Shown here piece by piece: positions 1,457-25,152 of a stretch of 64,000 nucleotides of DNA (the stretch's first letter is position 1; each line of letters starts with the position of its first letter). The notes under the pieces were generated by a model, which did not search any database, was not told where the DNA came from, and saw only the letters and a list, made by a program, of their open reading frames with translations. The translations under genes were made by a program, and so were the position numbers. Location: the NCBI GenBank assembly GCA_963825865.1, contig CAWGVG010000007.1, forward strand, positions 17,209 to 81,208, written 5' to 3'. This stretch comes from an uncultured Nitrososphaeraceae archaeon (GTDB lineage Archaea > Thermoproteota > Nitrososphaeria > Nitrososphaerales > Nitrososphaeraceae).

Positions 1457-1585
1457 TAAAATTGATTAATAGTATGGGAAAAAGTTGAATTTTGTTTTGT
1501 GCGTCATGCTGCTCAGATGCATGATTATTTGTTTGAACATCAGAAAGCAGAATGGTGGTATAGTTAAGAGAAATAGTAATGTCTA

Positions 1586-1996
1586 CTACTGTAAATGTAC
1601 ATGTCCAGTTACATAAGATCTGGTGCCATTTTTACAAAATCTTATGTAACTATGATATATTGTCTGCAACTTCTTAAGCAAATCTAGGTCACTGTTCATC
1701 AGGTCAGGAGCAGGAGAAGAAGGAGAATTATTCTTACCCTTATCATCGTTGTCTATCTTCTCTAGTAGAGTATCGCAAAAGTTACCTTCTTCTATATCAA
1801 ATTTCATTGCTTCAACTAGTGCTTCTTGCATGTATTCTGAGATAGATATTTGATATGTGTTACAAATAATATTCAAAACTTCGTGTTGATCCTTTGTTAG
1901 GTTTACTTTTTCATTAATTGTAACAAGATTAGCAGGATCCTTACTGTAGGTTTTGTTGACTTTTGATGAGGGGGATGATGATGATGAGCTATTCAT
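1586..1996 (-). CDS. Hypothetical protein (possible ribbon-helix-helix/CopG-like); paralogue at ~60.8-61.1 kb
   Basis: ORF track; DNA 1790-1915 is nearly identical in reverse complement to 60830-60970 (NEKVNLTKDQHEVLNIIC.TYQISISEYMQEALVEAMKFD). Confidence 0.6.
   Translation of the reverse strand: MNSSSSSSPSSKVNKTYSKDPANLVTINEKVNLTKDQHEVLNIICNTYQISISEYMQEALVEAMKFDIEEGNFCDTLLEKIDNDDKGKNNSPSSPAPDLMNSDLDLLKKLQTIYHSYIRFCKNGTRSYVTGHVHLQ
1607..1651 (-). repeat. Palindromic site, copy 1 (13-bp arms AGTTACATAAGAT/ATCTTATGTAACT, 19-bp asymmetric spacer)
   Basis: Arms at 1607-1619 and 1639-1651; spacer is reversed relative to the copies at 4029 and 61084. Confidence 0.9.
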
Positions 1997-2235
1997 TTTT
2001 CTTCTTGTTGTTTATATTATACTAACATGAGCTATATCTTTTTTGTTTGAAACTGCTGGATTGTTTTTTCGCTTACTAATGAGGGAGTCTAGTGAATAGC
2101 TGTAATGAGACTTCGGTTTGCTTGATATTATTTTTCTTTTTTATACAATGTAGCATTAATAACATTATCAATAGTCACAAGAACTTAATTACATATCTAG
2201 TTATATATTTCATATACATTATATTTTTTAATAGC

Positions 2236-3111
2236 ATGAATAATGATATTAAAGGAGAAAGAAAAAGAGAAGAAGAAATATCATCTACCTCTCCTATTTT
2301 GAGTACGAGATATGCTCACAAAGCAGACAAAATGATACATTCTCTTGAAGGAAAGTTCATTATTGTCATAGGTGTGATTGTTGGCCTATTTATTTTTTCA
2401 TTAATAGATATCATTCAAATAAAAGGATATGTTTACATCTTGGCAGACTATGTCAATGATATCATAATAATAACACTTGAGCAATATTAATTGTTGCTTT
2501 AATATTTGTTCTGCGTTTCTGCCTGAAATCAAAAAACCTGCTTAATAATTGGGCTAATTTATTTGAGCGAAACTCCATAAGAGCAGGAATAAGTATTTCG
2601 ATGGCCAATAAAACCAAAGAAGAGCTTATATTGGCAGTATCTGAAACTATTGAACGGGTTGGCGAACCTCTACAAAACTACATATCATCATCAAAGGATA
2701 ATCTCAACCATTTTATTGATGTAACAATGAGGAATGAAAGAGAGCCTGATAACTTGCATTATGATGTGCTAGATACAGAATTATATCGTTCAAACAACAA
2801 CATCATAATCAGTATAATCAACAATAAATGAAAGCAAAAATTCTGATAACCTTAAAAGCGTGTTAAAAGAATATGGTGCAATAATAATCAAAATTGCTGA
2901 TAACAAAATAGAACGAGAATCCCTTTATCCATTTTTTGATTCACTTTCTCATTATATGTCAATAACAAAAAATGATATAGGCCTGGCTTTAATGATTGGG
3001 GAAGATGTTACACAAGATGCATATCATTTAGTAACTAATTACTCAAATAAAAACAAAAGAATTCAGAATATAATACTTGTTGAAAAACCAATATTGAACA
3101 ACCTTGGATAG
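2236..3111 (+). CDS. Membrane-anchored hypothetical protein, frameshifted; C-terminal part may be a restriction-endonuclease-like fold
   Basis: ORFs 2092..2490, 2601..2831 and 2860..3111 are colinear; N-terminal TM helices; fold call is tentative. Confidence 0.4.
2278..2306 (+). repeat. 29-bp direct repeat, copy 1
   Basis: ATATCATCTACCTCTCCTATTTTGAGTAC; one mismatch to 3542-3570. Confidence 0.85.
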
Positions 3112-3130
3112 ATCAATCATCAATGTTCAT

Positions 3131-3439
3131 TCATAGTCCATAAGATAACCTGGCAAAATCTAGAAAATCTTTGGCCCACTTAGTATATGACCTGACCCCT
3201 TTCTCTGTTGCCTGGTAACAAATTGACTTAGATGTTTTGGTTGATATTATAAAGCCATTTTTCTCTAGCAAATCCATGATAATGGATATTCTATCTGGTC
3301 TTTGCTGCTTGATTTCCCGAACCTTTGTTATAATATGATATTTAGTTACAGGCCTGTTCAAAGCATCGGTACACAAATATTCAAGGATTGAAAGCATGGT
3401 ATATTCAGAAGAAAATCGTTTCTTCTTCTCGTCAGCCAA
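3131..3439 (-). CDS. Winged helix-turn-helix transcriptional regulator
   Basis: 102 aa; ILEYL..., TKYHII, LLEKNGFI, YQATEKG pattern typical of archaeal wHTH. Confidence 0.7.
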   Translation of the reverse strand: MADEKKKRFSSEYTMLSILEYLCTDALNRPVTKYHIITKVREIKQQRPDRISIIMDLLEKNGFIISTKTSKSICYQATEKGVRSYTKWAKDFLDFARLSYGL

Positions 3440-3585: not shown

Positions 3586-4038
3586 ATGCCTTTGAGTCCT
3601 CCTGTTATCAAATCAGGACCTGAAATCGCCCCTATAGATTGTCCGTTAAATCCATATCGTGATGATAATGGAACAGCACATCCACAGAATTATCGTTTAA
3701 CAGAACTTTCGTTTGAATATTCCTTGCCAAACCCCTATGACAGAAACAGTCCATTTAAACATAAAATCCATGGTTGGCTTGCTGTGCCTACTACAACAAC
3801 GTCGACTGGAAAATATCCTGCAGTGTTAGTGGTCAACGGTCATAGTGGAAGCGCATGGGTAATGATACAACCTGATGCCGGCGAAATTTATTGGTACGGA
3901 GATTCCTTTGCGCGTCGAGGATTCGTTGTATTAGCTGTAGACATATCACATCGCGGATTCATCGACGAGAGCCTAGAGGGTTCTAGGAGATGTCCACCAA
4001 GCATGCCCTATCCACCACCAGATATCATAGTTACATAA
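3586..4038 (+). pseudogene. Alpha/beta hydrolase (dienelactone hydrolase/acetylxylan esterase-like) N-terminal fragment, ending at the palindromic site
   Basis: HGWLAVP...KYPAVLVVNGHSG...FARRGFVVLAVD; no nucleophile elbow before the stop inside the repeat. Confidence 0.65.
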
Positions 4039-4073
4039 GATTTCGTAAAAATGACACCATATCTTATGTAACT
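4029..4073 (+). repeat. Palindromic site, copy 2
   Basis: Arms 4029-4041 and 4061-4073, spacer TTCGTAAAAATGACACCAT. Confidence 0.9.
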
Positions 4074-4194
4074 GGAAATAACACAACCTGCGGTAGTAGG
4101 CTTTTACTATTTCCTAACTATATTGACCATTCTGCATCATATACACATACCTACAATATCTGATTGTTATTATTGCAATCGTTCTTCAATTCCT

Positions 4195-4892: not shown

Positions 4893-6007
4893 CTATTTCT
4901 TTTTCTTGACTACTAATATGTACAGTTCTCTATTATCTGTTTTCAAAGTCCTAGGTTCTTTCAATGGATTATCAAAACTAATTGGCAAGTAACCTTTATT
5001 GATAGCACCATTCAGACAGTCATTTATCCTTGTATCCGTGTCAAAGTCTAGTGCTTCTAACTCATTGCACTTGTCTAACCATTTGTCTATAATATCAAAT
5101 GATTCCTCAAAAGATAGGTGCTTTACATTGACAAGGTATGGTGCAAGAATTCTCCAGATGCAATATTTTCTAAATCTAGGTAATGGAGTTTGCAAGAGCC
5201 TTTCAATCCAGAGTATCGATGATGAATTGCCATTTTCTGACAAAAATGTTTTAATCATTTTTTTACCCAATTTCCGTTCTTTATTATGTTCTTGGTCTAT
5301 GAGGTAAGATAGGAATTTGCTATAAAGTAAATCTATAGGTTACTTTGGTAGTACCGCTCCATTTCTGCACAATTTGAACTTGGTTATAGTTTTTAGAATT
5401 AAATGAACCAGGTATTCTTAACATGCAATTCCTAAATGACACAGTATGGTAATGTTCTGAATCTGCTTTTCCATTGGACAGATAGTATTCTGCAAACCTT
5501 AGAAATTGCTTTGAAGGTTCCGTGAAGTTTCTAAACTCTGGACATGTTTTCTAAAATAATATTTTCAGATTCTACAATAGTAGGTAAATAGAAATGGTAT
5601 CCATTGCCTGTCCAGAGTATAGTTGGTTCAAAATCTATAGAAAATATAGTTTTTATATTTGTCAAAATCTTTGCCTTAGCCAAATCTAACATTTTAATAT
5701 TGAAATTAAATTTGCCCAAGTCCAAGTCAATCATGAGAAGGCTAATTGCAAGAATTGCATTTTGAGAATGTCTATAGGCGCTAATTCTGCAGTCCAAATA
5801 GTCTGAATCCTTGTAGTAAGACATTGCTTCAAGTTTACTGTATACTGTAATCTGCCTGCCTTCGGTTAATTTCGTTGAGATAGTTCTGGGCCAAATTGAA
5901 TCTTTTTCAAAATGGCTTAAGATAAAGTCTAAACCGTCGGCAACCTGTTTTTCAGTTAAATTATGGTCAAAATTGGTGTTTTGGTGGTAGCTAATGTTAA
6001 TATCCAA
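4893..6007 (-). CDS. Archaeo-eukaryotic primase small subunit fused to a PriX-like domain, frameshifted
   Basis: AEP motifs LMIDLD and TGNGYHFY in 5531..6007; C-terminal WIERLLQTPL..FRKYCIWRILAPYLVNVK..WLDKC is PriX-like. Confidence 0.8.
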
Positions 6008-6084
6008 TCACCTGTACAGTGCATTGCTCACGAACAGAAAAAAATAAGGGGTGAGAAAGGCATGTTTGGGTTCAGATGGGCCAA

Positions 6085-6464
6085 TTAACTTGCAGCTTCT
6101 GCAAAGTACTTCGTATCTGAACCTAAACCTGTCTTCCATATTCTCTGTACCTTTACTCCTTTTTTCAGCAAAGAATTCACGGCTAGTAGAGCGCCAGTGC
6201 TAGATGCATTCCAGATTCTCTCTATGGTACTGTTAGGTTCCTTGACAAGGAACTGTACCATGGGCCAAATTTTCCCTTAGCGCCTGGGTCTACCTTCAAG
6301 ATTTCGAACACTTTGCCCGCACCTTCGAATTCCTTAGCACTTACGAACTTTGAATTCTCTGCTATGAATTCGCTGATCTTCCTAGATGCTTCTTCGTCTT
6401 CTGGAGTTATGTTTCCATTTCCATTACTTCCTGTTGATGCTTCATTCGATTTCTTACTTGTCAT
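6085..6464 (-). CDS. Putative single-stranded DNA-binding (OB-fold) protein, one frameshift near 6262
   Basis: Joined translation ...GKFGP/MVQFLVKEPNSTIERIWNASS...RIWKTGLGSDTKYFAEAAS; the G.G.DT.Y ending recalls viral SSBs; lies between PolB and primase. Confidence 0.5.
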
Positions 6465-6533
6465 TTCTTACTCATTTCACTTTTCCTATCTATGCAGATT
6501 AGCATTAACCAGCCACACCTATGTGACAGTTAT

Positions 6534-8420
6534 TCACATGGAGGTTCTTGCATCACTGTGACCATTTGTACTTTTAGACTTCTTATTTGGATTTGTGACG
6601 CCAAATTCTTTAGCTAAGATTTCAGTAGGATATCCTGCAATTTGCAAGACTTCACTAACTGTGTTCCATAGACTTTGCTTGTACCATTGAGTATCAATAT
6701 CTGAAGGATTTGTCGACCAGCTTGAACTTGTCTTCTTTAAATTAGAAACAAAGTATTCTATCAACTCGCCTTTAAATTTGCCAAGCGCTTTACCAATTGT
6801 AGCTGACTGACAGCTCTGAGATTTGTAGTCTTCTGGATTATCTCCAAGCACCTTTGATATTTTCAACAAATCTGCATTTACTATTTTGTTAGAATCTAAA
6901 TCAGACATTGCACACCTTAAGTTGGGTACAGGGTCAATATTGTATCTAACAACATTATTTACCAATTGTTTGAATGCATTATTAACAAACTGGGATCGGT
7001 CGCTCTTTTTACCTTCCATGCCAACAATGTCAAGCGTGTCTTTGTTCTTGTCGTTTAATCCATAACCTATATAGTGTTTCTTGCCCTTGCTCAGAATACA
7101 ATTAAAATATGTATTTTTAATTCCAAGTTCGATATCCAACTCTCTGTTGAATCTGTCTTGGAATTTTAAAAGAGATTCTGCATCTGGATTGTCCAAAAAT
7201 AAGGAGTCCGTATCTCCATAGATAATTTTGAAACCTAACTCTTTAGCAATACTTTGCATTTTGGAAAGTACCTGCCGACCTAGGGCTGTTACCAGTTCTG
7301 CAACTCTAGGATCATAGTAATCATATCTATTATCTCCAAAAACTCCATATCCACCATTAATTCAGAATCTTTAATGCAAGTTGCTTTGGCTTGTTTCCCA
7401 AGTCCTTTTGCTTTAATCTTTCAGCCCTGAACAATCTTAATTTCCTTGGAAAAGCACCTATCTCCTTCTGGCAAATCCAAGAATCTTTATTTACAAATTT
7501 GCAATCCTTCAGGAATTTATCATCTAAAGTAACTGATATTTTGGCATTAGGGTCATCCTTGCAACACTTACAGTTGATTGTATCGAATGAATAAATTGTA
7601 ATTTATGCCAACACTAAGGTACAAACTGGTTGCATCCACAACCACAACATTATGGTAGAAATCTTGTTTCGGTTTAAGTACCTCTGCACCTTTGTATGTT
7701 CCACTAAACGAGGTTTTGACAAGTGGCTTGCATTCTTCATTTTTTAATCATTTTATCAAATATTGCACCCCACCATGTTGATAGATTTGTTCTGCAAACA
7801 CGTTCAAAATCTAGTTCTGCTATCTGTGAGATTGCATACAATGCATCAAGAACCTCGTAGTTTTCATGCTTTGATAGTTCCATTACCAATTCAGAATCCC
7901 TAAACAGAATATTCTATCTGTTCTTCAATTGGCAAGTTTTTGAAATCTTTACCAGACAAGTTTTTGGTACTTTCCATATCCCAAAAGAACTTTCGAAACT
8001 TCGTCAAGTTTGTGGGTTCTGTAGGCGTTATTGTAAATGGTATCTTGGACCATTACCTTTCCGTAAACATTGCAGAGGTCGATATGCTTTCGGCCTTTTA
8101 TATACGGCACACCTTTCTGACTCAAAAGAGACTACAGATTTAACTTCATTTGCAATGCACCTTTTGTGCAGTATTGACAGGTCAGATTTCTCGGCACTTC
8201 CTGCATTGTTCATATGCCCTGTAGAATTCCAGCCCATAGACAAGTCATAATCTATAAGTTTGGCACTTGCATGCTTCAAAAGTCGAATTTCCGATCCTCC
8301 AAAGTCTGACCTTAGCAGCACCTTGCTTTTCCCATGACTGTCTACAAAAGAAGTACTGCTTCAAGCACTTGAGTGACTGGGTCCCATTCGAAGTCAAATG
8401 CAACGTAGTTACCTAAAGTT
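6534..8420 (-). CDS. polB: Family B DNA polymerase with 3'-5' exonuclease domain, several frameshifts
   Basis: ExoI YVAFDFEW (~8390), motif A VVVVDATSLY (~7630), motif B KQLALKIL.NGGYGVFG (~7340-7390), motif C IIYGDTDSLF, KKHYIG, GMEGKKSDR. Confidence 0.9.
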
Positions 8421-8470
8421 TCGGCTACCTCTGGCAATTTGGCCTGGTTTTGTGAAGAGAGTGAACAAAT

Positions 8471-8657
8471 ATCGACTGAACCGACTGATCGACTGACGCT
8501 AGTGATTTGAGCACGATTCTGGCCATTTTCTGCAGTCGATATGTCAGTCGATATTTGGTTTGTGTCAGATGGCATATCGACTGTAGTATCGACTGAAATA
8601 TCATTAGCGATTTGAGCACGATTCTCGGCTTTCAGTCGGTCAGTCGATATAGTCGAT
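8471..8657. repeat. Symmetric iteron-like array, putative replication origin
   Basis: Ten CGACT-core repeats (consensus ATCGACTG/CAGTCGAT) in alternating orientation, plus two identical 17-mers GATTTGAGCACGATTCT at 8504-8520 and 8609-8625. Confidence 0.8.
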
Positions 8658-8714
8658 ATATGTTCAGCCTTCTCGTAATTTTGCTTTCTGATAATTTCCT
8701 GCTGGTACAATATG

Positions 8715-10764
8715 TTATTTCGAGGAGCGGCAGAGGCAGCAATCCGAGCTATCCATATAACCATCGTGTAATCTTTTGATGGTCCATTGCTTGTTGCTAT
8801 TATCCACAGAATTCCTTTCAACTATAATTCCAACGCTACGAAGGTCGGCTTTGATAAGGTTAATCCGTCGGCTTAAGCTATTTGGTGCTTGGGGCCACAG
8901 CTTGCCATTGCTTGTCTTAATCTTCAAGTTATCTTGTGCAATTTTTGTCAATAAATCGAGCAGTTCTGTTATAGTTCCATTCCAAAGAGGTGGTACCTTG
9001 CTATCTATGAAAATCTCTATTGCCTTTCCAACGACGTCATTCTCAACTACTTCTCTAGTCTGCAGGTCTATATTCCTAAAGTAGGCTTCGATAAATTTGC
9101 CAGGTTCATATCCCATAGAGCATGACACAATCTCTCCAACTTCTGCAAAGTCTGCCATTCTAGGATACTCTCTTAATTTGAGGCCGTCGGGGTTGTCTCT
9201 CTGAAACTGCAAAACTCTGGCTAGAATGTCAAAGATGTATCCTAAAAGCTCAGGCCTTATCTCGTAGAACTTTTGCCAAATCTCTTTGAGCAAACGTTTC
9301 TTATATTTTGGAATTGGAGTATGTTCTATGATAAGTCCTCTATCAACGAGGTCCGACTTTGTAGCACCTAGGTTGATTCCATTTATTCCAATGCAATGCA
9401 TGAAATTGTATATGATATCGTCATCATTGCTATACAATTCCCTCTTGGAAAATCCACTGCCTGTTACAGCCCTGCATAGGATGTCAGATATGGATTCGTA
9501 AATTTTTGAAATGTTATCAAAGTAGCAAACGTAATTGTGCGCAAGTTTCTGTATCATGCTTTCAATACTTCTCGAGAATGCCAATGTCTTAATCAAACTT
9601 GGGTCAACTAGCATCTTGATTAGTTCTTGGAGAGTTGATTTCGCAGTTCCTTTCTCACCATATAGCATTAGTGCAGGGTGTTGGATTTCTGGATAAAACA
9701 AGGATACTATGTACACCTTGAAAAGGAGCTTGTTATCTTCAGATTCCTTTACATTTGTCAAGTCCATAAAACTGTCAAATATATCCTGTGGATATTCCTT
9801 CGAAGGATATACCTGTGGTTTTTGGTTTGATGTACCTTCTAAATATCACGGTCGCATATTCTATATTCCAACCTCTACTTGCAGTAATTCTAACAACTTG
9901 CCAATCTTCGTTAGTCAAATCGTATAAAATTGAAGTGCCCTTATTGACATCATTCTCATCGTCTATTGTTTCCTTTGCTACACGCAAATGGAGGTCTCTT
10001 TGGATTTTGCTAGAAGCGGCCTTTGCCTCAAGTATCCTAATAACGTTGTTTAGGTTTTCTGTATTTAGGGTGTCAGCATCAAGTTCTTCATCGGCACAAC
10101 CACCATCATGCAATGCTTTTTTTTCTCCATCATTTCCACCCTCATTATCAAAACATTCATCTACAGTATGTGCCTTGGACTGATTCTTCTCTTCATCATC
10201 ACTTGTATCCTTTTGAGCATTTTTACCAATGGTGAAATCATAATAAACATTACAAAGCCAGTTCTTGAACCTTGAACCTTTGATCGGTAATACTTCCAAA
10301 TGGTTGTCAATTTTGACTGCAGCATGGGGCTGTCCCAGATTATCAATAAAAAAATCTTGGCAATGCTGCTTGGCTAATTTCATCGCCAGTATTGCGGCAG
10401 CTCCTTTACCTGATAGTATCTGAATCTGGGAAGATTCTTTATGGCTTTTGCCGTTCAGTTCTTCGGCCTTGTTGTATAGTAGGTATTGCAAGTAACCGTT
10501 GCTTGCATCCATCAAGAAAAGTAATACTTTGCTAACTGCGTTTTTGGAAAGGCCAGGATACCTTAAGGCTTCCTTTTCAAATGCATCTCTTGTGTTAGTT
10601 AGCTTCTTTGGGTCTATCTGGACAACTACCATTTGCCCTCCTTTGAAATTGACATTTATAATATTGGATTGCCTAACGAATGAGGCAACTCCTAGAGCTT
10701 TAAGTTGTTCATTAACTGGTATGAAGGTAACTGTATCCTTTTTGTCCTTCTCTACCAATTTCAC
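8715..10764 (-). CDS. SF3-like helicase/ATPase with C-terminal winged-helix; frameshift near 9830; possibly fused to PolB
   Basis: Walker A GEKGTAKST, Walker B CYFDNIS, motif C IGINGI, Arg-finger DLVDR, wHTH WNGTITELL...LSRRINLIKADLRSVGI; the two ORFs join via FRRY/NQKPQVYPSKEYPQDIFDSFMDL. Confidence 0.8.
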
Positions 10765-10970
10765 AAATCACCTTCAACAATGAAAAGCCCAGTCCTAGGC
10801 TCATAACCTGTAACATGTTTACAAATGCAAGGACCAAAACCGCAGTCTTCACAAAAATAGGGTAAAGATTTATCATTGACTCGAGTATATTGATCAGGTC
10901 CTTGACTTTGACAAGCATCATAAAAGTAAACTTTATCTTTACGTTGTTGATTATTCTCTAATGTAGTCAT
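10761..10970 (-). CDS. Small Cys-rich (zinc-binding) protein
   Basis: CEDCGFGPCICKH; its stop overlaps the helicase start (coupled genes). Confidence 0.55.
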   Translation of the reverse strand: MTTLENNQQRKDKVYFYDACQSQGPDQYTRVNDKSLPYFCEDCGFGPCICKHVTGYEPRTGLFIVEGDL

Positions 10971-11214
10971 AGTAATTCAACACTTCTGTGGCTGCGCTTG
11001 CATCTGTCTGTTGGTAGGTGAGAGAAGAATTGGTTTGAGGGCCTATCTTCTTCTCAACCTCGTAACTGTGACAAGGACAAATACATCTAACAATGAATGT
11101 TTTTGTAAAATCTACGTATGAACCAGTGCAACTATCACAAGGACAGAGACACGCAGTAACAGTCGCAATTTGTCTTAAATTTTGAGCTTTTGCTTCTTTG
11201 GCCGTTTGGTCCAA
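10951..11214 (-). CDS. Small Cys-rich protein
   Basis: CLCPCDSC and CICPCH motifs. Confidence 0.55.
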   Translation of the reverse strand: MDQTAKEAKAQNLRQIATVTACLCPCDSCTGSYVDFTKTFIVRCICPCHSYEVEKKIGPQTNSSLTYQQTDASAATEVLNYYDYIRE

Positions 11215-11216
11215 AC

Positions 11217-11399
11217 TTACACGGCATCTCCGTTATGTTTGAAGAAAGTTATAGTAGTCCTGCAGTGCGAACACGTGCATACAAATTGATTCGTTCCTGT
11301 ATAAAGCCAAGAATGTCCACAGCGATGGCAAATGACTTGACGCCCTTCCTTCTGGATTATTACTATCCCTTGTATTTTTCCGGGAATAATTTTGCCCAT
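11217..11399 (-). CDS. Zinc-ribbon protein
   Basis: CHRCGHSW.Y.G...CTCSHCRT, typical of archaeal mobile-element DNA-binding proteins. Confidence 0.7.
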   Translation of the reverse strand: MGKIIPGKIQGIVIIQKEGRQVICHRCGHSWLYTGTNQFVCTCSHCRTTITFFKHNGDAV

Positions 11400-11411
11400 A
11401 CACAGTAGTTA

Positions 11412-11436
11412 TATAACACATTAGCGATATGTTATA
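11412..11436. promoter_or_regulatory. Inverted repeat in the divergent promoter region, putative operator
   Basis: TATAACACAT-tagcg-ATATGTTATA (9/10 arms) between divergent genes, overlapping TATA-like TTATATAA. Confidence 0.4.
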
Positions 11437-11460
11437 GGAGATCATTAACGGAGCATTTCA

Positions 11461-12876
11461 TTGAAAACAATCGATACTGGAAAGGACAAAAAATTTGTAG
11501 ACATAGTTTACAAATATGATGCTCTCGGACTTGGATTTAGAGAGCTACAAAGAAAGACTGGCTTCAGTAATGATGGCACTACTTCGCGGATTAAACGTCT
11601 GGTTGAATTTGGTATCTTGGAAAAAGATACACATGGGTACTATCACATAACTAAGAAGACAAAGACCAAATACGAAAATGGAACTATGGTCATACCTTCT
11701 GATATAAGGAGTGAAAAGCATAAGGATAAAAAAATAAGACGTGAAAATGCATACACAATATTAGTATCCAAAGCAGCAGGTGGGGATTATCGTTACAGAC
11801 CTACATTAAAACCACAATACGGTAATTCTTCCATGACTGATGTCAAGACAGGTAAGGATGTAAGTTATTCTGGTTATCATATTCCAGGAGTTGGACTATC
11901 AGACTTTAAAAAAATTAAAGGTCCTGCAACATTAGATAAGAGAATACATGTAGGACAATCAGAATTGTTTGCATACCCAAAAATGGATTTTACAGAATCA
12001 GAAATACAGCAATATATTTACAATCTAAAACATCGTAAATATCCAGTTCTTAAGGAGATTACAATATTTGATCACAAATTTCTTTCTTATGTATTTGATA
12101 TTGACAATGATAATCCAAATTTAATAACATTGAATCGGGAAGGTCATACTACGGAGGGTGAAGAAGGCAAACCCAAACATAGGTTAGTTGTTAAACGGGA
12201 AAAAGAAGAAGATAAACTACAATTTTATCATGATATTTTCTACAATGAAAATAGTCATCACAATGGCGTAGAGATCTGTTCAAAATTGATATTCGATATC
12301 AACAATGAAAGGACAATAAAATCATTAGGATTGTATACTCAATACAATAATGATAATAATGATTTTTCAGCCGAGATATGGCGAGAACAGCGGTACATTA
12401 TTGCAGATCCCTTATTACAGGAGTTCATTATAACATGCTGGACTATTTTAGGTTTTGTCCTTTTTAGAATGAATGAAACATATGTGTATAAACGATGGCC
12501 TAAGCACCGAGTGAGAACAGGTAACGGAATTAGAGATATGTCTATCAAAGTTGGTAAGTCATATGTCTATCACTTGTATATTAAATGGTATAAACGATTA
12601 TTTGGAACGTACAGATTTACCCAGCATAATTTCTCACAGCTTTTAGCAAGAAAAACGAATTTCGAAAAATTGGATAAAAGTACCCAAAAAGAGCAACTTA
12701 CAAATGCAGATGATTTGATAAACTCATATGATAACGGAATAAAGGAAAATTATAAAATCATTATGGGTAACAAATATGTAGCAATACGTGATAAATACAA
12801 AGATGTGGTGACAGCACTACTGGATATAGTATATCCAATGTTTCTAAGGGAACTACATGAGCAACATAAAATTTAA
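11461..12876 (+). CDS. Large protein with N-terminal winged HTH, element regulator or unknown function
   Basis: Intact 471 aa ORF; GLGFRELQRKTGFS..TTSRIKRLVEFGILEK...YHIT. Confidence 0.7.
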   Translation: MKTIDTGKDKKFVDIVYKYDALGLGFRELQRKTGFSNDGTTSRIKRLVEFGILEKDTHGYYHITKKTKTKYENGTMVIPSDIRSEKHKDKKIRRENAYTILVSKAAGGDYRYRPTLKPQYGNSSMTDVKTGKDVSYSGYHIPGVGLSDFKKIKGPATLDKRIHVGQSELFAYPKMDFTESEIQQYIYNLKHRKYPVLKEITIFDHKFLSYVFDIDNDNPNLITLNREGHTTEGEEGKPKHRLVVKREKEEDKLQFYHDIFYNENSHHNGVEICSKLIFDINNERTIKSLGLYTQYNNDNNDFSAEIWREQRYIIADPLLQEFIITCWTILGFVLFRMNETYVYKRWPKHRVRTGNGIRDMSIKVGKSYVYHLYIKWYKRLFGTYRFTQHNFSQLLARKTNFEKLDKSTQKEQLTNADDLINSYDNGIKENYKIIMGNKYVAIRDKYKDVVTALLDIVYPMFLRELHEQHKI

Positions 12877-12920
12877 TGATGACAAACTACCCGTTTTATT
12901 CTGATTGATTAGTCGTATGT

Positions 12921-12943
12921 AAGATACATAATTTATCTATCTT
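12921..12943. terminator. Hairpin between convergent genes (terminator or binding site)
   Basis: AAGATACATAA-t-TTATCTATCTT, 10/11 arms. Confidence 0.3.
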
Positions 12944-12984
12944 GTAACATATCTAAAGCCTAACGACATGGGATAATATTGGCA

Positions 12985-14263
12985 CTAGGCTTTATTATTA
13001 TTATTTAGTATACCGGATTTGTATAGCATTTGTGCTGTTTCGTTTAGCTGATTTTGGTTCGTTATACCTCCAAGTGTAGATATCAAAGTTTGTAATTGTG
13101 ACTGCATTGTATTGAATTGCTCCTTCATTGTCTTAATTTCTTCATCCTTCTCTTGTAGTTTTCCCCTAATAATGTATTCATTATCTTTACTTTTTTGTGT
13201 AAGCTCTGCAACCTGTTTTCCTAATACGACTTTGTCGTTACTAATTGTTAGTAAATCTACTGCTTTCAAATAATCTTCAAGAACTTCCTTTTCTTTAGGT
13301 TTATAATATGACGCGGATACACCAATATTATGGCCCATAGTTATCTCGACGTTAATAGGCCTCATGACCTGCTCTGCATGACTTTTATAAAACTTACGAA
13401 ATCCATGTGCAGCCTTCCATTCATGACGTTTTGCTCCTTCCTTGAGAGGTTGGCGAATCCCCTGTTCCCATAAAGCACGTTCTAAAAGTCGTTTCATACC
13501 GCTGCTTTTGAGCTTCCTTGGATTTGTTGCCAAACCCCATTTGGCTCCATAATCTACATTAGTTGTCTGCCATATATCACGCATCAACCAGGATTCTCCT
13601 GTTACCTTTTCACCATAAGATGCACGAAAGTCCATCCAATCCTTGAGTGAACTGTAAGTCTCAGGTGTGATAAAGGAATAATATTCCTCTCTGTCTCCTG
13701 CATAAACTATTAATTTAGCTGCGATAATTTCACCTGAACTATTAGTCATGGGAATTACATGCTTCCACTGTAAGTAATCCCACGAGCCTATTCTAATCCC
13801 TGATGAAACCATTGTGCAAACAATTGGTTTTATTCTCCTATCGGGATATTCAACCAACTTTTGGATTTCTTGTATTGTTGGTGCTCTGTCGTTAGCGAGC
13901 TTTTCCAGCTCTAGGTAAACCACGGGCTATTTTCTTCCAATTTAAGATTATGTCATTCATTTCACAAAATAGCTTGGTTGCTCTATAGTAATTAGGAATA
14001 GTACATTCTGATATTTCTCTCTTTTTTGACCTTTCAAGTTCATAAGATATGAAGTCTATGAGGGCCTCCTCTGCCCATTGGTAGCTCTCTTTGGCCTTGA
14101 AGAGAAATTCTTTAGCTTGCTCCTCTAAACTGCCTTCAACTCTCAAATAGTCAAGAAATATCCTAAAACGACGCGGGTATTGCCTTCTTGATTCAGCCGC
14201 TTTTAAAGCATACATAAAGACAGCAATTGGATTCTTTTGTTCTACAGCAACTGACGATGTCAA
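12985..14263 (-). CDS. Tyrosine recombinase/integrase, frameshift near 13895
   Basis: Catalytic residues SSGIRIG (R), HGFRKF (HxxR), MGH, ASYY; N-terminal core-binding domain in 13892..14263; adjacent to tRNA 3' end. Confidence 0.9.
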
Positions 14264-14320
14264 TTTCCTATTACCACTACTAATAATAAAGTGGGCTTAA
14301 ATAAAGGGACAAGATTGACG

Positions 14321-14425
14321 CGGGCTCGAAGGGATTTGAACCCTCGACCTGACGCTTAGGAGGCGTCCGCGCTATCCATTCTACGCCTATTTTTTTTTCA
14401 TACTAATAGTCTGCGCCACGAGCCC
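14321..14425 (-). tRNA. tRNA-Arg(CCT) with ~30-nt non-canonical intron in the D-arm
   Basis: Acceptor GGGCTCG/CGAGCCC-G, anticodon arm GACGC-CTCCTAA-GCGTC, T-arm GAGGGTTCAAATCCCTT; 105 nt total. Confidence 0.9.
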
Positions 14426-14635
14426 CAATATTTTGAACATTAATAGCGCCATTTTAAGTGTTTATTATGTATGTCTTTAGTAGAACAAACTCTTGTCGAA
14501 ATCAAAGTACTTCCTCACCTGTAACTCTATGAGTTCTAAAAAGTAGTTTAAATCCGCAATATACTCGATACCGGAAAGTCGTTGAGCTATCCCGAACCTA
14601 GTTTCGTCAACCACGGGAGCATAACCGTAGTTCAT

Positions 14636-14821
14636 TTATTCTGGTTCTGTCTTTGGCGAACCCATATAAGCAGATCGGCCATGGTCGATGTAATCGGAGG
14701 ATATTATTTCATCAAATATTGTTTCATTTTTGTTATTGTATGCGTCAAAGTAGCGTTGAATAATAGCCTTATTCATTTCAATTTGGGACATTATGTCGTT
14801 AGTATTCATAGGGGTGATCAC
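14636..14821 (-). pseudogene. SnoaL/ester-cyclase N-terminal fragment
   Basis: NKAIIQRYFDAYNNKN...DEIISSDYIDH. Confidence 0.6.
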
Positions 14822-14927
14822 TAAAGAAATTGTTAAATAGTTTTACTACGACATCCGGCTGCTCTTCTGCAATATAATGTCCTGAATTTGTAACTGTAAC
14901 ACCCCTGAACATTTTGAGCTAATATTT
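14820..14927 (-). repeat. Degenerate duplicate of the 3' end of the hydrolase gene (17270-17376)
   Basis: ctaaagaaattgtt...gctcttctg...cctgaatttg.aactgtaacaccc present at both loci. Confidence 0.8.
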
Positions 14928-15105
14928 CTTTTCTTTATCGCACAACATAATTGTTGCAAGTTCAGTCATGTACTCTATCCACACTGACCTGACACATAAT
15001 TAATTTTGAAACATAAAAAAAGAAAAAAGCAGGTATATGTTGACCGGCAGTCATTTGTATGTAAATGTACTGTTTTGAAGTAATACCTGTACTGTAGGAT
15101 CAACT

Positions 15106-16383
15106 CTACCAGATTGAGCCATGGCAAAGCAATGAGTTGACATGAACTGCTCGCGCTCCACCAAGCCTATTTTCCCATTTAGGCAACATGTTACTTACAC
15201 AGTTTTCGCCAACCGCATCAATGTATTTGGAGAAAATGAGCCATGGATTGTCAAAACGTCCTACTTGACTTGAAACCTTGCCAAATTGGACTTCCTGGTT
15301 TGCTCTGCCAGCTGCCTTTTCCAAATCAGAAACAAATTCCTTTTGTACTATTACATCATTTCTTGTTCCAAGTCTAGTAAGATGGCCAGCAACAATTGTG
15401 TCAAAGTCATAGTTGTTTAAGGTTATGTCATGAGCTTTGATAAAGCCTGCAGTATCTTTAGCTATTGCCAAATAAGGAAATGGAACCCATCCAGGAAATA
15501 TGACATCAACTAACATGAGTACCTTTTGTTTTGGAGCATAAATGAATATATTTCCAGCTAGATGGTTAACGCCATAGTAGTCTAACTTTAGACTTTGATT
15601 TCCAATCTGCAAGGTGTAGTTCTTGGCAAAAGTAACTGTAGGAATTGGTGGTACCATGGAAGCATTCTTGGCTACACTTTTGGCTCTTTGTAACTCAGCT
15701 GCAGTTTCTTGTTGAGCTATAAAAGTAGCATTCTTTGGGAATATCCCTGCGGCACCTATATGATCTATATGAGCATGACTGTAAATCACATAAGTAACTG
15801 GCTTGTCTGTCACTTCTGCTATGGCTTTGAGATAGTTATTGCCAATTGTTGGAGGAGCATCAACTGCTACAACACCTTTGTCTGTTACCATAAATATAGT
15901 CTGGTAAGCTCCATCAGTTAGCCAATAAAGACCACCCTTAATTTGCTGAACTAGATATCCTTTAGCAGGTATTGGAGGTCCTTTTGTTGCTTCAGGTAGT
16001 TGGATATTAGCACCAGTAGCACTACTATTACTAGACTGCTTTATTGCTTGGGATGCGAATTTAAGATATGCTGTCTCTTCATCTTCTTGAACTAGAGCAT
16101 TTGAACTTTGAATACCAATGAGCTGTTGTTGTTGTGCCATTGCAGTATGATTTTGGTTTAATACTGGTGTAAAAACAAACAATATGCTAATTGTAATAAT
16201 GCCAATCATAAGAAACGTTGTCTCAGGTATATGATGTGAGGAAGCATGGAATGTGGGTTTATCTTTCCCGACCATTACAGAATCTGGTCCTAGGTTTGTT
16301 ATAAAAGTATAGCCTTGCATTGTACCAATCACTATTATGGTTACGAATTTTTCTCGATACTCAATACGTGGCAGACTAATCAA
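15106..16383 (-). CDS. Secreted metallo-beta-lactamase-fold hydrolase; true start probably ~16210
   Basis: SHAHIDH motif, VAVDAP, AGH; signal-like hydrophobic segment ending AMAQQQQ. Confidence 0.85.
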   Translation of the reverse strand: MISLPRIEYREKFVTIIVIGTMQGYTFITNLGPDSVMVGKDKPTFHASSHHIPETTFLMIGIITISILFVFTPVLNQNHTAMAQQQQLIGIQSSNALVQEDEETAYLKFASQAIKQSSNSSATGANIQLPEATKGPPIPAKGYLVQQIKGGLYWLTDGAYQTIFMVTDKGVVAVDAPPTIGNNYLKAIAEVTDKPVTYVIYSHAHIDHIGAAGIFPKNATFIAQQETAAELQRAKSVAKNASMVPPIPTVTFAKNYTLQIGNQSLKLDYYGVNHLAGNIFIYAPKQKVLMLVDVIFPGWVPFPYLAIAKDTAGFIKAHDITLNNYDFDTIVAGHLTRLGTRNDVIVQKEFVSDLEKAAGRANQEVQFGKVSSQVGRFDNPWLIFSKYIDAVGENCVSNMLPKWENRLGGARAVHVNSLLCHGSIW

Positions 16384-16426
16384 TATTACTGCAAATACTA
16401 AATCAGATATTCAATGTTTAAGTGTC

Positions 16427-17233
16427 TTAAACACAATTACAACAACCTTTGCATATTTGGGTCATTAAGGTGTCAACAATCAAAGGCGCGCCAACGGGCA
16501 AGCTTTGTACTCCATATACCAACCGAACATGGCCGGCCTTTGGCCCAAAGATCTGAACAAACAAGTTTGACGCTCCATCCGCCACGGATGCGTGTTCAGC
16601 AAATTGCTCCGTCGTTGCCATCAGCACCGTCAACTTGAGCAGCGCTTTCAGCCGATCGAGGGGGGGCGGAGTGTCAACTATGCCAGGCGAGATTGTGTTC
16701 ACCCGAATACCGTCAGCCAGGAATTCCATCGCCAATGCGCGGTTAAACACCGGAATGGTGGACTTCGTGAGCACAGGGAGCGAAATCGCTGCGCCGGCCA
16801 ACGGCTGATCCGTCAAAACCGTCGAGATGCCTACGATATGGCCGGACTTCTGTTTGCTCATTTGCGCGGCCACTTTTTGCGTGATGAAAAAGTAACCCGC
16901 AACGTTTGTGCCAATCATCAACTCAAAGTCCGCCGGCGTATAGTCGGTGAACGGCTTATTAATGTAGATGCCCGCGTTGTTGACCAGGAGTTCAATGCGG
17001 TCAAAGTGTTTGATGGCGGCATCGGCCACTTTTATGGAGTCCTTTTTGCCAATGTCCCAGTCCACAAGAATGAGGTCGGATGAGGGTTTCAAATCTTTCG
17101 ATTTGCTGATGTTGCGCGAGTTGGCGATCACACGATAACCGTGTTGGAGCAGCGCTTGGGTGATGCCGAAGCCGATACCGCTGGAAGCGCCGGTGACAAT
17201 GGCTACTTGTTTTTCGGTGATAGTTGTATTCAT
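16427..17233 (-). pseudogene. Short-chain dehydrogenase truncated and fused to a RidA/YjgF C-terminal fragment
   Basis: TGASSGIG, NNAG, RVNTISPGIVDTP, then LKLTVLMA...HASVADGASNLFVQIFG..AGHVRLVYGVQSLPVGAPL; visibly GC-richer than the flanks. Confidence 0.75.
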
Positions 17234-17245
17234 AAGGGATAGTTC

Positions 17246-18292
17246 TCATCTAGTTTTAATGGTATTACCGCTAAAGAAATTGTTGAGTAGTTTTACTAGA
17301 AAATCTGGCTGCTCTTCTGGAATAAAATGACCTGAATTTGGAACTGTAACACCCTGAACATTTTGACCTAATATTTTCATTCCATATATGACAGTAGGCA
17401 TAGTAATATTACCTCCGAATGTTGGAATATATCCTCCTCCTAGCGCCAATACTGGCATTGTAAGCTTAGTCTTTGAATAATTCTCATTTTGAATCGCATC
17501 CTGAGGAAAAGCCCGATAGTGCTCAAATCCCGCATGCATTGCGCCTGGAACAGAATAATGGCTAACATATTCATTGATATCTGCTTGCGTTATCGCAGCT
17601 GGATTATACGCAAGATTGTGAAAGAACCATGATAAATACTTCATCTCTTTTCCTTGTACAAGGGCTTCTGGTACGTCCGGTGTTTGATGGAATATGGCCC
17701 ACCATAATGGCATTCTACCAGCAGGTGCGAAACCGGGAATCGTTAATTCCATAACTGCTAACCTCTTTACATCCGCAGGATGTGCAGCTGCATATGAATA
17801 GGTTACCTGTGTTCCGATATCATGACCCACTAGGAAAATTGTTTTAAATCCTAGCTGAGTAACTAGGTGATGTATATCCTCAGCTACGGTTTTGCCATCA
17901 TAACCAGTTGTTGGTTTTGACGAGTCTCCAAGGCCTCGCAGATCAGGCGCAACAACAGTATAGTTCTTGGCTAAAGCTGGCATTACACGATGCCATGCAT
18001 ACCATGTTTCCGGCCATCCATGTAATAAGACTACAGGGTCACCATGGCCTCCAATAACATAGTGCAATTGAATACCATTAACAGATGCCGTACGATGAGA
18101 AAATGTCATGTTAGCCATCTGAAAAGATATACCAGTAGGCTGTTGTTGTTGTTGTTGTGCCATTGCAGTATGATTTTGGTTTAATACTAATGTGCAAACA
18201 AATATGCCGGTTGTAACAATAATAATCGTAAGAAAAATTGCTGTCAAACAAAATGAGAGATAAAGCGAATAGTTGTCCTTTTTTTCATTCAT
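17246..18292 (-). CDS. Secreted alpha/beta hydrolase (epoxide hydrolase/haloacetate dehalogenase-like)
   Basis: LLHGWPET, PDLRGLGDS, GHDIG nucleophile, SGHFIPEE. Confidence 0.9.
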   Translation of the reverse strand: MNEKKDNYSLYLSFCLTAIFLTIIIVTTGIFVCTLVLNQNHTAMAQQQQQQPTGISFQMANMTFSHRTASVNGIQLHYVIGGHGDPVVLLHGWPETWYAWHRVMPALAKNYTVVAPDLRGLGDSSKPTTGYDGKTVAEDIHHLVTQLGFKTIFLVGHDIGTQVTYSYAAAHPADVKRLAVMELTIPGFAPAGRMPLWWAIFHQTPDVPEALVQGKEMKYLSWFFHNLAYNPAAITQADINEYVSHYSVPGAMHAGFEHYRAFPQDAIQNENYSKTKLTMPVLALGGGYIPTFGGNITMPTVIYGMKILGQNVQGVTVPNSGHFIPEEQPDFLVKLLNNFFSGNTIKTR

Positions 18293-18426
18293 TACGAGAT
18301 CTGTTTCACTGGCATGTAATAAGAATAGTGGTAATTGGAACTAACACGCAAAGGATCAACTTATTGATTTAGGGAAACTTGCTGTCAAAGACTAACACTA
18401 TTCTTGGGGGCTGAGCTCAGTTGAGG

Positions 18427-18900
18427 TTATAATAACAGTGACAAACTTCTTCCTTTTCTAAAGAAATCAGCTTCGACTAGTAAAATGAATTTGCGGTTAT
18501 CCAACGCTCTGTAGGCGTCTATGTGGTTCGAAGGATACGCCTCAATTCTGTTGCCATTTAGCTCCAATACCGTTTCCTTATTGGCAAAAGTTAACCCCAG
18601 CTTTCGCTCAAACAATGATTTCATTCTCTTAATCAGCATGATGGCAATGTCTATGTTAGGGCCTGTAACAATGCACATCTGTGAATTTCTATAATCGTTA
18701 TTTCTCAAGCATAGCCATGCCATAAACCGCAGAAAGAATTCTGTTACTCCTAATCCTGTTGCCTTCTTTATCCAAAGGTGCTTATCCTTGAAATCATGGT
18801 TCAGCGGATTACAAAAGTCTGGAGAAAGCAAAGCCTCATACAACAATTCTTGGTAATCGAAAATTGGCTTTTCCAATCCCTCTTTTGCCATACATGACAA
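18427..18900 (-). pseudogene. Terminase large subunit ATPase-domain fragment
   Basis: DYQE Q-motif, WIKKATGLGVTE Walker-A-like, FILLVEADFF degenerate Walker B; truncated at both ends. Confidence 0.6.
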
Positions 18901-18981
18901 CTCCTTTTATATACAACTTTTATATGATGGCAGAAATCACTCAAATGTGTCGCAACAATAATTAAAAAACTTGAATTGTTG

Positions 18982-19520
18982 TTATTTCTCCAGTTTGTTC
19001 TTCCTGTTTTTCTTCTCCTTCTTTATCTGAGCTTTCGTTCTCATCATCATAATCAGCTCTTTAGATTCTTTGTTGTCGTCTTCATTGCCACCATCAGAAG
19101 AAGAAAAAGATGACCTTTTTATTTGATCTTCTTTATCTTTATCTTTATCTTTGGACTTTCCAGATTCTGATACAGACCTTATGGCGTCATCGACTACTGT
19201 AGCATTTGTAAGCAAGTCTAGCTTCATAGAATAGCATTCTTTGGCTAATGACAAAGATTGTATCTTCTCTCTTCTGTCTTCTGCATGCTCCGAAGTATTC
19301 CATGCTTCCCTTAGAATTGCAGTCAACCCAACCAGACATTTCTGGTACTCTTCTGGCAGCCTTTCATCAATATATCTTCTGATGTTGGACTTTGCCTGCT
19401 GTCTAAGGTATGATAGGTCTCTGTTAACAGCACCATTAGATACCTGTAATGTCTGTGCTATCTCCCTCTGGCTATGTCCCTTGCTGCTTAGCTCCTGAAC
19501 TTTGTTTCTGTGCCTTGTTT
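18982..19520 (-). pseudogene. HTH protein upstream of terminase fragment, terminase small subunit-like
   Basis: RNKVQELSSKGHSQREIAQTLQVSNGAVNRDLSYLRQQAK followed by ORF 18982..19326. Confidence 0.55.
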
Positions 19521-19885
19521 ATCTTCAATTTGCAAGCTCAAGTGTTCAATTTCACCATGCTTCTTTTAATCGGCTAAACTTGTCTTTATTCGTTTTTGTA
19601 ATAGATTTAAAAATTAATACTTGCAAGATATTGATTTTCATAGTTAGGCTCCTTCAGAGTGTAGCAGTAAGCCGGAGCTGACGCTGATACTGAGGTATTA
19701 ACACTAGATTTAACTGCAGTAACCATACGCATATACGCATATACTCTTATGTAGTAGAATTACAAATTAATGGAAATGGTAAGGAACAGAACAAAACATT
19801 GGCCAACATGAAGGTAAGGATTTGGTTAATTGTAGACCTGATACATCTATGGGAACTAGATTCCTAGATCATTGCAAAAGCTAAG

Positions 19886-20074
19886 GTGTACCCACGGCGT
19901 ACAGATGACACGGGTAAATGGAAGTATGTGTCAAACCCTTATTTTATAAATTCGGAATTTTTAGAGGAAGCCATTAAGACAATGAAGGAGCACGGAGTTA
20001 GATTTGACGTTACAGGTGAGTCTAATTATTTTCCTGGCAGGACTTTTCAAATAAGATTCGAAAAGTTAAGATGA
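19886..20074 (+). CDS. Small hypothetical protein or fragment
   Basis: ORF track only. Confidence 0.3.
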   Translation: MYPRRTDDTGKWKYVSNPYFINSEFLEEAIKTMKEHGVRFDVTGESNYFPGRTFQIRFEKLR

Positions 20075-20280
20075 CTGGCAATATCCGACAAAAAGTTATT
20101 AGAACTCCGACGTTGTGGTGCCTACAATGAACCAGGGAGAATTTCACCCATTTCAATACCAAAAGGAACTTTCGTTATTTTGTGAGGAGAACATTATTCA
20201 GTTCGAAGCTTACGGCCCGTTGACCATAAGATGAATAGCCTTAATCTTTACAACTATCCAACGGTTTGTTGTGTCGGTTG

Positions 20281-20481
20281 TTATTTTGTTGTAATGAAAT
20301 TACACAGCACTTTATCCATGTCTTTTAAAACCAATTCACAATATTTGCTTGTAGTAAAACCTTCAATTGCTAAACTAACCTTCATTTGTATTTCAAGATC
20401 ATCCTCATTTTTCTTAGTAGTAGAAGTTGCTTCTGCTGCTGTTAATGTTGCTTCTAATGATTTGTTTGACCGCCTGGCCAT
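20281..20481 (-). pseudogene. Possible integrase N-terminal fragment
   Basis: KVSLAIEGFTTSKYCELVLKD resembles the N-terminus of Nitrososphaerales integrases (from memory). Confidence 0.35.
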
Positions 20482-20530
20482 AATACATGTATCCTAGTCT
20501 GGTGTACAAAAATACATTTAATAATAATTT

Positions 20531-21942: not shown

Positions 21943-22140
21943 TCAAATTGGTTTCCTGAAGATCGTTCTACGAAAATAAATTATAAAAAATATCTCAAAA
22001 CTGTTATATGATATACCTTCGCATTTCCTATGCTTGTAGAATGGCAAGTTAGGCGACAGAGTTATAGAAGTCAAACTGACTCATATATCAACTATTAACT
22101 TTAAATTTAGAATACTGTAAGAGTTACAGTAGTACGTTGT

Positions 22141-25090: not shown

Positions 25091-25152
25091 CTCTTTTTAA
25101 TTAAATCCGAATGTCTTAATACTCCTTCAAGGTAACAATTAGATCCCTAAAT

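Follow-up and report, generated by a model that had tools for sequence, protein, structure and literature searches.

The stretch of DNA analysed here (hereafter the window) comprises 64,000 nt of contig CAWGVG010000007.1, positions 17,209–81,208, in the assembly of an uncultured Nitrososphaeraceae archaeon (GCA_963825865.1). Its left part carries a putative integrated element next to a tRNA-Arg(CCT) gene, with an integrase gene of the tyrosine-recombinase type, a divergent gene, three small Cys-rich open reading frames (ORFs), and a replication module that combines a predicted D5-like superfamily 3 (SF3) helicase, a B-family DNA polymerase (PolB), a small ORF, and a primase (Table 1). An earlier reading of this DNA from its sequence alone had described a co-oriented operon holding an apparently complete self-replication kit. 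The gene order and the three Cys-rich ORFs of that reading stand, as do the divergent gene (471 aa) and the presence of PolB, helicase, and primase, which are seen here as a Pfam DNA_pol_B match, a D5-like fold, and an archaeo-eukaryotic primase (AEP) domain with a PriX fold, respectively. The separation of helicase and PolB into two genes does not stand, as the two are one fused gene in relatives.

Table 1. Features of the element and its surroundings in the window
Feature	Position	Strand	Remarks
Inverted repeat, left arm	1547..1658		~115 nt, 82% identical to 4022-4135
Two-gene cassette	2092..3439	295-aa homologue on +, 102-aa wHTH-like on -	probably part of element
Inverted repeat, right arm	4022..4135		~115 nt
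Primase, AEP + PriX-like helical domain	4893..6007	-	three frames in window
Small ORF after PolB	6067..6464	-	80 aa as deposited; position conserved
Helicase-PolB fusion gene	6534..10764	-	8 frame changes in window; collinear with P0002
Three small Cys-rich ORFs (69, 87, 60 aa)	10761..11399	-	upstream of fusion gene
Divergent 471-aa gene	11461..12876	+	predicted N-terminal helix-turn-helix (HTH); candidate regulator or origin binder
Integrase, tyrosine-recombinase type	12985..14263	-	two overlapping ORFs, 13892-14263 and 12985-13923, one frame change
tRNA-Arg(CCT)	14321..14425	-	predicted integration target; Rfam RF00005, sequence read directly

A search with the PolB C-terminus returned proteins of 1240–1427 aa at 60–69% identity, several of which are titled Nitrososphaeraceae. 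One of them, P0002 (1427 aa), is collinear with the window from 10752 to 6549 over residues 7–1411; the alignment runs through a 329-aa ORF, a 350-aa ORF, a repetitive linker, and the entire PolB, and the window shifts frame at 9831, 8722–8769, 8348, ~8120, ~7960, ~7740, 7590, and 7361. Between 8821 and 7260 PolB motifs are present without a long ORF, followed by a 241-aa PolB C-terminus with the sequence YGDTDS. A scan of one genome per species recovered five intact loci (L001–L005) in three Nitrososphaeraceae metagenome-assembled genomes, where a fusion ORF of 1381–1398 aa is followed by an ORF of ~160 aa and then by a primase of 290–369 aa. Judged by these alignments, helicase and PolB are one gene of ~1400 aa in intact relatives. 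The polypeptide begins with an N-terminal domain of ~95 aa and continues with the D5-like SF3 helicase, a winged-helix-like end, the repetitive linker, and PolB. The linker is the least conserved portion of the fusion (45–59% identity), and at 8500–8650 it contains imperfect direct repeats of 28–30 nt that encode repeated peptide motifs.

The 350-aa ORF of the helicase harbors a Walker A motif, GEKGTAKS. The N-terminal domain and helicase gave no usable match to the PDB by sequence. A model of the first 677 aa of the fusion (pLDDT 87.3, 60 sequences), which terminates in a helix followed by a β-hairpin, was compared with the PDB by Foldseek. The best match is the PrimPol of African swine fever virus (ASFV; 8iqi_A, E 2.3e-10, probability 1.00), and mpox E5, vaccinia D5, and SCCmec Cch were also retrieved (8iqi, 8wh6, 8apl, 5dgk; probability 1.00). 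These matches argue that the modeled helicase module has a D5-like SF3 fold. Poxvirus D5, mpox E5, and ASFV C962R share this fold (probability 1.00, E 1e-10 to 1e-8) together with the Walker A motif, the pre-helicase collar region, and a C-terminal DNA-binding end; in contrast, sequence identity is 10–14%, the N-terminal AEP is swapped for an unrelated domain of ~95 aa, and a polymerase is appended. The family of the helicase module counts 15,688 representatives at E≤1e-3, and an N-terminal PrimPol was found in six of ten sampled members; Pfam detected PrimPol in none of four proteins of ~1400 aa. In hhalign comparisons with PrimPol-helicases only residues 120–176 align, to the pre-helicase region (probability 98.6%), and residues 1–119 match nothing, suggesting that the PrimPol domain has been replaced by a small domain of another kind.

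The polymerase matches Pfam DNA_pol_B (PF00136, not PF03175) with an E-value of 1.3e-14. In a profile search of the PDB, Sulfolobus PolB1 (1s5j) is the best match (E 2.5e-60), followed by Thermococcales PolB and Pol α/δ, and no phi29-type chain is present among the best 60 matches listed. By sequence, the enzyme is thus probably of the RNA/DNA-primed type, with Sulfolobus PolB1 as the nearest solved chain. Its motifs YGDTDS and KKHY look canonical, and Motif A reads SLYLS where relatives read SLYPS.

The primase matches Pfam PriX (E 3e-7) and, by PDB profile, PriX 4wyh (E 8e-13), whereas profile-sequence searches alone did not detect an AEP domain. Foldseek with the primase model (pLDDT 88.1) retrieved the RepB' primase (3h20, E 1e-5), CAPP Prim-Pol, S-2L Prim-Pol, and eukaryotic/archaeal PriS, the matched chains including 3h20/3h25, 7p9j, 6zp9, and 4lim, and the C-terminal domain superimposes on PriX with TM-scores of 0.78–0.84. 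Residues D83, D85, G127, G129, H131, D173, and H176, which make up the DxD, GxGxH, and DxxH signatures, are invariant across 47 sequences. The model therefore portrays the primase as an AEP catalytic domain joined to a PriX-like helper domain. An hhalign comparison with PrimPol-helicases reached a probability of 8.9% and agreement at the motif level only. The family consists of 1048 clusters annotated as PriX only, and its named members come from Nitrososphaeraceae. In another contig of the same genome (C31:3598-6075) a single-frame ORF of 825 aa combines the C-terminal half of PolB with AEP and PriX, which points to a PolB-primase fusion or else to an assembly artifact.

For the small ORF between PolB and primase, neither a Pfam family nor a sequence match in the PDB was found. 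In tblastn it aligns to a 164-aa ORF of locus L050 at 40–46% identity. A language-model search returned viral hypothetical proteins and, at rank 14, a cluster in which 17% of the members are phi29-type single-stranded DNA-binding proteins (SSB), so that the label 'SSB-like' is a lead only. The 60-aa Cys-rich ORF, which is zinc-ribbon-like, has copies on four other contigs (44–62% identity) and a 39% identical relative in L050. Pfam matches of the 471-aa divergent gene are weak; Atlas features point toward HTH/MarR-like clusters at 0.83, a lead only, and homologues occupy the same position in loci L052 and L062.

On the right, the module is bordered by integrase and tRNA genes. Rfam matches the core of tRNA-Arg at 14329–14387 (35.4 bits) and ARAGORN makes no call; the acceptor halves GGGCTCG and CGAGCCC and the anticodon loop CUCCUAA are legible in the sequence, and the D-arm carries a non-canonical insertion of ~30 nt. 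Locus L002 has the same tRNA-Arg(CCT), with another D-arm insertion, directly before a 427-aa integrase. The exons are 96–100% identical between L002 (6385–6490) and the window (14321–14425); the insertion differs in length and sequence, as would be expected of an intron. Both integrase ORFs of the window are collinear with the single integrase of L002 (47% and 39% identity), in line with the integrase-bearing element at tRNA-Arg(CCT) proposed from sequence alone. The Pfam profile Phage_integrase (PF00589) scores 17.4 bits on the window ORF (E 0.004), under the cut-off of 27.1, and on the L002 integrase it likewise stays below with 22.4 bits. The stretches GIRIGS, HGFRKF, MGH, and SYY are visible in the window ORFs and may correspond to the tyrosine recombinase catalytic motifs R..HxxR..H..Y.

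On the left, the limit at 4893 given in the sequence-only reading is probably too short. The cassette at 2092–3439 is syntenic with the gene pair that follows the primase in L001 and L003 (tblastn, 33–49% and 64% identity). It is inverted relative to L001 and sits inside a 2.4-kb segment bounded by the inverted repeats of Table 1. The core of each repeat arm is a palindrome with a 13-bp stem, and a 45-nt core recurs on contigs C45 and C15. The element spans no less than 9.5 kb, and a length of ~12 kb is probable.

The layout of the window recurs in other neighborhoods in the order tRNA, integrase, divergent gene, helicase with or without fusion to PolB, small ORF, and primase; the tRNA-integrase adjacency is found in the window, L002, L052, L054, and C15. 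The replication genes of this family come in architectures that we label A to E: fused, ~1400 aa (A); split into 650 + 649 aa (B, L050); a protein of 850–867 aa plus PolB and primase (C, L053–L055, one of which adjoins tRNA-Lys); giant fusions of 1709–1792 aa (D, L051 and L052, the latter adjoining tRNA-Pro); and a more distant type without primase, the upstream genes of which belong to a pool of 84 neighbor proteins with three matches to MCM (E). The window module is one architecture in this wider helicase+PolB(+primase) family adjoining tRNA genes in Nitrososphaeraceae. Within the genome of the window, 24 PolB Pfam matches are present; further modules lie on C15 (adjoining tRNA-Ile), C21, C3, C5, C6, C62, and C31, many of these other copies being partial, and 24 additional places contain only an integrase. 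A metagenome scan added just four short loci. Proteins of 352–455 aa with a weak integrase match (phrog_216, E 5e-4), which adjoin tRNA-Pro or tRNA-Lys in L052, L054, L060, L062, L065, and C21, may constitute a recombinase family of their own.

The locus is present a second time in the genome, at C8:101693-111818; this copy aligns to window positions 13680–28047 and matches 14320–28047 at 96–99%. It lacks window positions 14928–17270 and 18443–20273 and has a different integrase (70% nucleotide identity) at the same tRNA-Arg(CCT). It stems from a recent duplication, or else two strains were binned together.

To place the polymerase, we surveyed 401 genomes of the order, 112 of the same family and 289 of others, and considered the best 150 of 211 matches. 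Most matches are cellular PolB of 816–945 aa (28–37% identity), and the window PolB is 26–37% identical to the cellular PolB of the order. Element-type PolB (≥40% identity) occurs in at least 14 of the 112 family genomes, one of which (G266) is flagged as unpublished; among the matches listed, the 289 genomes from other families contribute none. A quick maximum-likelihood tree of 64 PolB rows, from which nine duplicates, two fragments of <500 aa, and L022 (unpublished genome) were left out and which holds no named casposon, piPolB, or HelPrimPolB references, separates 45 element-type from 13 cellular sequences by a branch with a support of 100. Types A, C, and E each form one clade, B adjoins A, and MCM+PolB modules appear as a sister group. 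The window PolB accordingly falls into a clade that is specific to elements and separate from the cellular enzymes.

Together, these data make it reasonably likely that the window contains an integrated Nitrososphaeraceae element with its own tyrosine-type integrase and a three-gene replication operon, which is a cryptic integrated element (CIE) by gene content and whose gene breaks are errors of the assembly. Such an element would integrate downstream of tRNA-Arg(CCT) by means of its own integrase and could be excised as a circle. Its core operon would encode the ~1400-aa helicase-PolB polypeptide, a small protein, and the AEP-PriX primase. A DNA-binding protein, for which the divergent HTH gene product and the winged-helix-like end of the helicase are candidates, would open the origin; the hexameric helicase part would unwind the DNA, the separate primase would lay primers, and the tethered PolB would extend them. 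Having its own helicase, primase, and PolB, the element would need little of the host replisome. A bolder version holds that the ~1400-aa helicase-polymerase is a minimal leading-strand replisome, which together with the primase copies the element without host MCM, PolB, and PolD, and that the family is a distinct self-replicating lineage; we consider this version doubtful, though worth keeping in mind. Across types A–D, PrimPol, helicase, and PolB have been joined and separated more than once, and these types would, if this version is true, offer a natural series in which the tethering of replisome parts can be followed. The version also allows for some members being packaged by relatives that encode a terminase.

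Several observations weigh against the reading as an integrated element with an intact replication operon. One comes from L052, whose PolB is 43–45% identical to that of the window: a 482-aa TerL (phrog_2, E 1.4e-26) and an HTH gene lie right after its replication genes, so some members of the family may be viruses. The window element could likewise belong to a head-tailed provirus or be a satellite that such a virus packages; the replication module would then represent the early region, with the structural genes located elsewhere or supplied by a helper. The terminase remnants that the sequence-only reading noticed nearby are real: a TerL-like fragment at 18430–18900 matches phrog_2 (E 9e-5), is 54% identical to the 482-aa TerL, and is accompanied by an HTH partner at 19159–19509. 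Furthermore, the best viral structural match of the primase is the primase of an uncultured archaeal virus (E 9e-9), and some neighbors strongly match PHROG families of unknown function. However, the TerL fragment lies beyond the tRNA, outside the element side, in a 1.8-kb stretch that is absent from the C8 copy, and full or partial copies of the TerL-HTH pair are present on 26 of the 62 contigs, the fullest on C4, C59, and C48. This number is far beyond what proviruses explain, so the pair resembles an independent, proliferating element employing a terminase-like protein, and the satellite idea gains little from it. Four terminase Pfam models gave no match on the contig of the window, and Pfam and PHROGs revealed no capsid, packaging, or conjugation genes among the ORFs of the window element (PHROGs gave nothing useful on window ORFs). 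Of the 84 pooled neighbor proteins of relatives, a single one, from the more distant L052, matches a terminase, and the best 25 of 35 PHROG and 25 of 99 Pfam families contain neither capsid nor portal. Among the families listed, no capsid, portal, or terminase is recognizable in the closest loci, in agreement with the sequence-only reading, and the terminase, portal, and HK97-type capsid of a head-tailed provirus were not found within the element. No relative was present in 2.9 million IMG/VR contigs, and matches to GenBank phages are remote (≤27% identity for PolB and one helicase match at 25%). That the window element is a provirus part or a satellite is therefore improbable in our view.

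In the deposited sequence, all large genes of the element are interrupted and the small ORF has a break too, which suggests as a further alternative that the locus is a decayed remnant of an old integration, with pseudogenes and a lost distal attachment (att) site. Eight frame changes in the fusion gene, two in the primase, and one in the integrase would fit this alternative, as would the deviating Motif A, the lack of an att repeat in the window, the inversion of the 2.4-kb segment relative to relatives, and the many partial copies in the genome. The same breakage affects essential genes, however: rpoB domain 6 is split into three pieces and rpoA' domain 2 into four (e.g. C44:23333-26220). 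In the assembly as a whole (4.98 Mb in 62 contigs, 82% complete), ORFs of ≥150 aa make up only 43% and just one ORF exceeds 1000 aa. Single-base indels appear to be pervasive, with about one per few hundred bases, and apparent pseudogenes of this assembly should therefore not be trusted at face value.

Independent contigs from four public runs, all of one study, were matched to the element, from which they differ by 0–6 substitutions per few hundred bases. Among the best 12 of 46 indel rows, they are one base shorter at both 9831 and 7590 and insert a C after 6260, the sites where frame changes had been placed from the alignment, and one contig of 811 nt shows five gaps over 7499–8314; parts of 10956–11603 and 12576–13223 are not covered. 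Deletion of base 9831 in silico fuses two ORFs into an open stretch of 683 aa, and the extra C after 6260 extends the open frame of the small ORF to 127 aa. In a codon comparison with four relatives, the ratio of nonsynonymous to synonymous differences (pN/pS) is 0.06–0.10 over 0.64–0.74 in the helicase and 0.20–0.25 over 0.61–0.75 outside of it, which indicates strong purifying selection. Since rpoA' and rpoB are broken likewise and near-identical independent contigs show indels at break points, the frame breaks of the window copy are most likely assembly errors rather than decay, and the element is probably intact in nature. The 'complete' kit of the sequence-only reading thus does not describe the DNA as deposited, where the fusion gene and the primase are spread over several frames, probably through assembly error. 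Only three of the break points coincide with an indel among the rows listed, and the indel sites lie outside homopolymers, so real frameshifts in this strain keep some probability, and pN/pS reflects long-term constraint and is silent on recent history. On balance, a decayed remnant is slightly less probable to us than a provirus or satellite.

The remaining points against an intact integrated element concern its boundaries, its origin, and the roles of its smaller genes. Neither an att repeat nor a distal boundary was found: a direct-repeat search of the window gave no att repeats of ≥10 nt above chance, and in the window and L001–L005 neither blastn-short nor a 22-nt pattern that allowed ≤3 mismatches detected a repeat of the tRNA 3' end. 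The missing repeat weighs little because thaumarchaeal att sites can be as short as 8 bp, according to PMC6563490. An empty tRNA site was not recovered, as the tRNA flank is not conserved across 30 relatives, and the independent contigs, which are poor at showing such a joint, contain no junction of the element ends. No origin-like repeat or iteron array was found either; the internal origin proposed earlier comes down to a 16-nt tandem of 1.9 copies at 11400–11430 (score 41). The small ORF, the N-terminal ~95 aa of the fusion, the Cys-rich ORFs, and the 471-aa gene have no assigned roles.

A self-synthesizing transposon of the casposon or pipolin kind is very hard to reconcile with the locus. 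A mobile element that brings its own PolB is common to all of these, and pipolins share the tyrosine recombinase and the tRNA target. Against this kind, Cas1 was not found (PF01867, no match at E≤0.01 across the 82% complete genome), and in the matches listed Cas1 and element-type PolB never share a contig; PolB is probably of the primed type (PF00136, not PF03175), closest to PolB1, and stands alongside primase and helicase; and no terminal inverted repeats pair the two ends of the element. The dedicated primase makes primer-independent synthesis unnecessary. The assignment to neither group and the absence of Cas1, both anticipated from sequence alone, are upheld. An accessory operon of the host for replication or repair that happens to lie close to an integrase, for which extra archaeal PolB operons such as NitGar-E5 in PMC6563490 provide a precedent, is just as implausible given the patchy distribution (at least 14 of 112 genomes among the matches listed), the multiple diverged copies that a genome carries at different tRNAs, the recurrent tRNA-integrase adjacency, and a PolB clade separate from cellular PolB.

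An integrated element of CIE type also agrees with what has been described for this host group. Krupovic 2019 (PMC6563490) distinguishes five classes of thaumarchaeal integrated elements and lists CIE and integrative conjugative elements (ICE) with PolB, MCM, and AEP-S3H, the PolB-bearing ones being ThaMY3-E2 (with MCM), NitEve-E6, and NitGar-E5. The window element resembles these CIE in host group, tyrosine integrase, frequent use of tRNA targets, short or undetectable att sites, a size of ~10–20 kb, element-specific replication genes, and the lack of capsid and conjugation genes. It differs from those described in the text by the D5-like helicase-PolB fusion with an adjacent AEP-PriX primase, although the supplementary annotation of that paper might include such a module.

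Fusions of this kind have precedents as well. The text of Kazlauskas 2020 (PMC7544198), citing Kazlauskas 2016 (PMC4889955), names HelPrimPolB, in which PolB is fused to an SF3 helicase and PrimPol. As in HelPrimPolB, the PolB of the window relatives forms the C-terminal part of a multidomain protein that includes an SF3 helicase, and PolB relatives at 41–46% identity carry an N-terminal PrimPol (PF09250 in the 1707-aa protein P0038). Unlike HelPrimPolB, the ~1400-aa form has no PrimPol domain, the place of which is taken by a primase encoded in its own gene. PMC7544198 describes HelPrimPolB as profoundly divergent in Motif C and KxY, whereas the window PolB has the canonical-looking YGDTDS and KKHY. 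The primase, in turn, follows the plan of RSF1010 RepB' and mobile-element AEP primases, an AEP domain and then a helical helper domain in one chain; Kazlauskas 2018 (PMC5862659) relates PriCT domains to PriX. Unlike that of RepB', the helper domain of the window primase is specifically PriX-like.

The distinct class of self-synthesizing element proposed earlier is thus overstated, as PrimPol-helicase-PolB fusions (PMC7544198) and thaumarchaeal CIE and ICE with PolB (PMC6563490) are already published. We regard the replication module as unusual and nearly self-sufficient, a variant within known kinds and not a new class. Literature searches, which covered main texts but not supplementary annotations, returned no description of this helicase-PolB-primase module, and the accessible text of PMC11705971 contains nothing specific on it.

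Soil ammonia-oxidizing archaea have few characterized mobile elements and no genetic tools. The element could serve as the backbone of a shuttle or integration vector and as a compact system in which coupled unwinding and synthesis can be studied, and a mobile-element PolB clade beside MCM+PolB modules bears on the debate over the frequency with which archaeal elements and their hosts exchange replication genes.

Two further observations concern the right part of the window. A second integrase at 33163–34291 (phrog_1, E 1.5e-9) directly follows tRNA-Arg(GCG), and an integrase fragment is located 8 kb on, at 42131–42607; the integrase at tRNA-Arg(GCG) probably marks another integrated element. 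Between 14821 and 18292, a gene with a metallo-β-lactamase fold is tandemly duplicated (15106–16383 and 17246–18292), with flanks that are themselves repeated (14821–14904 versus 17271–17354, 88%).

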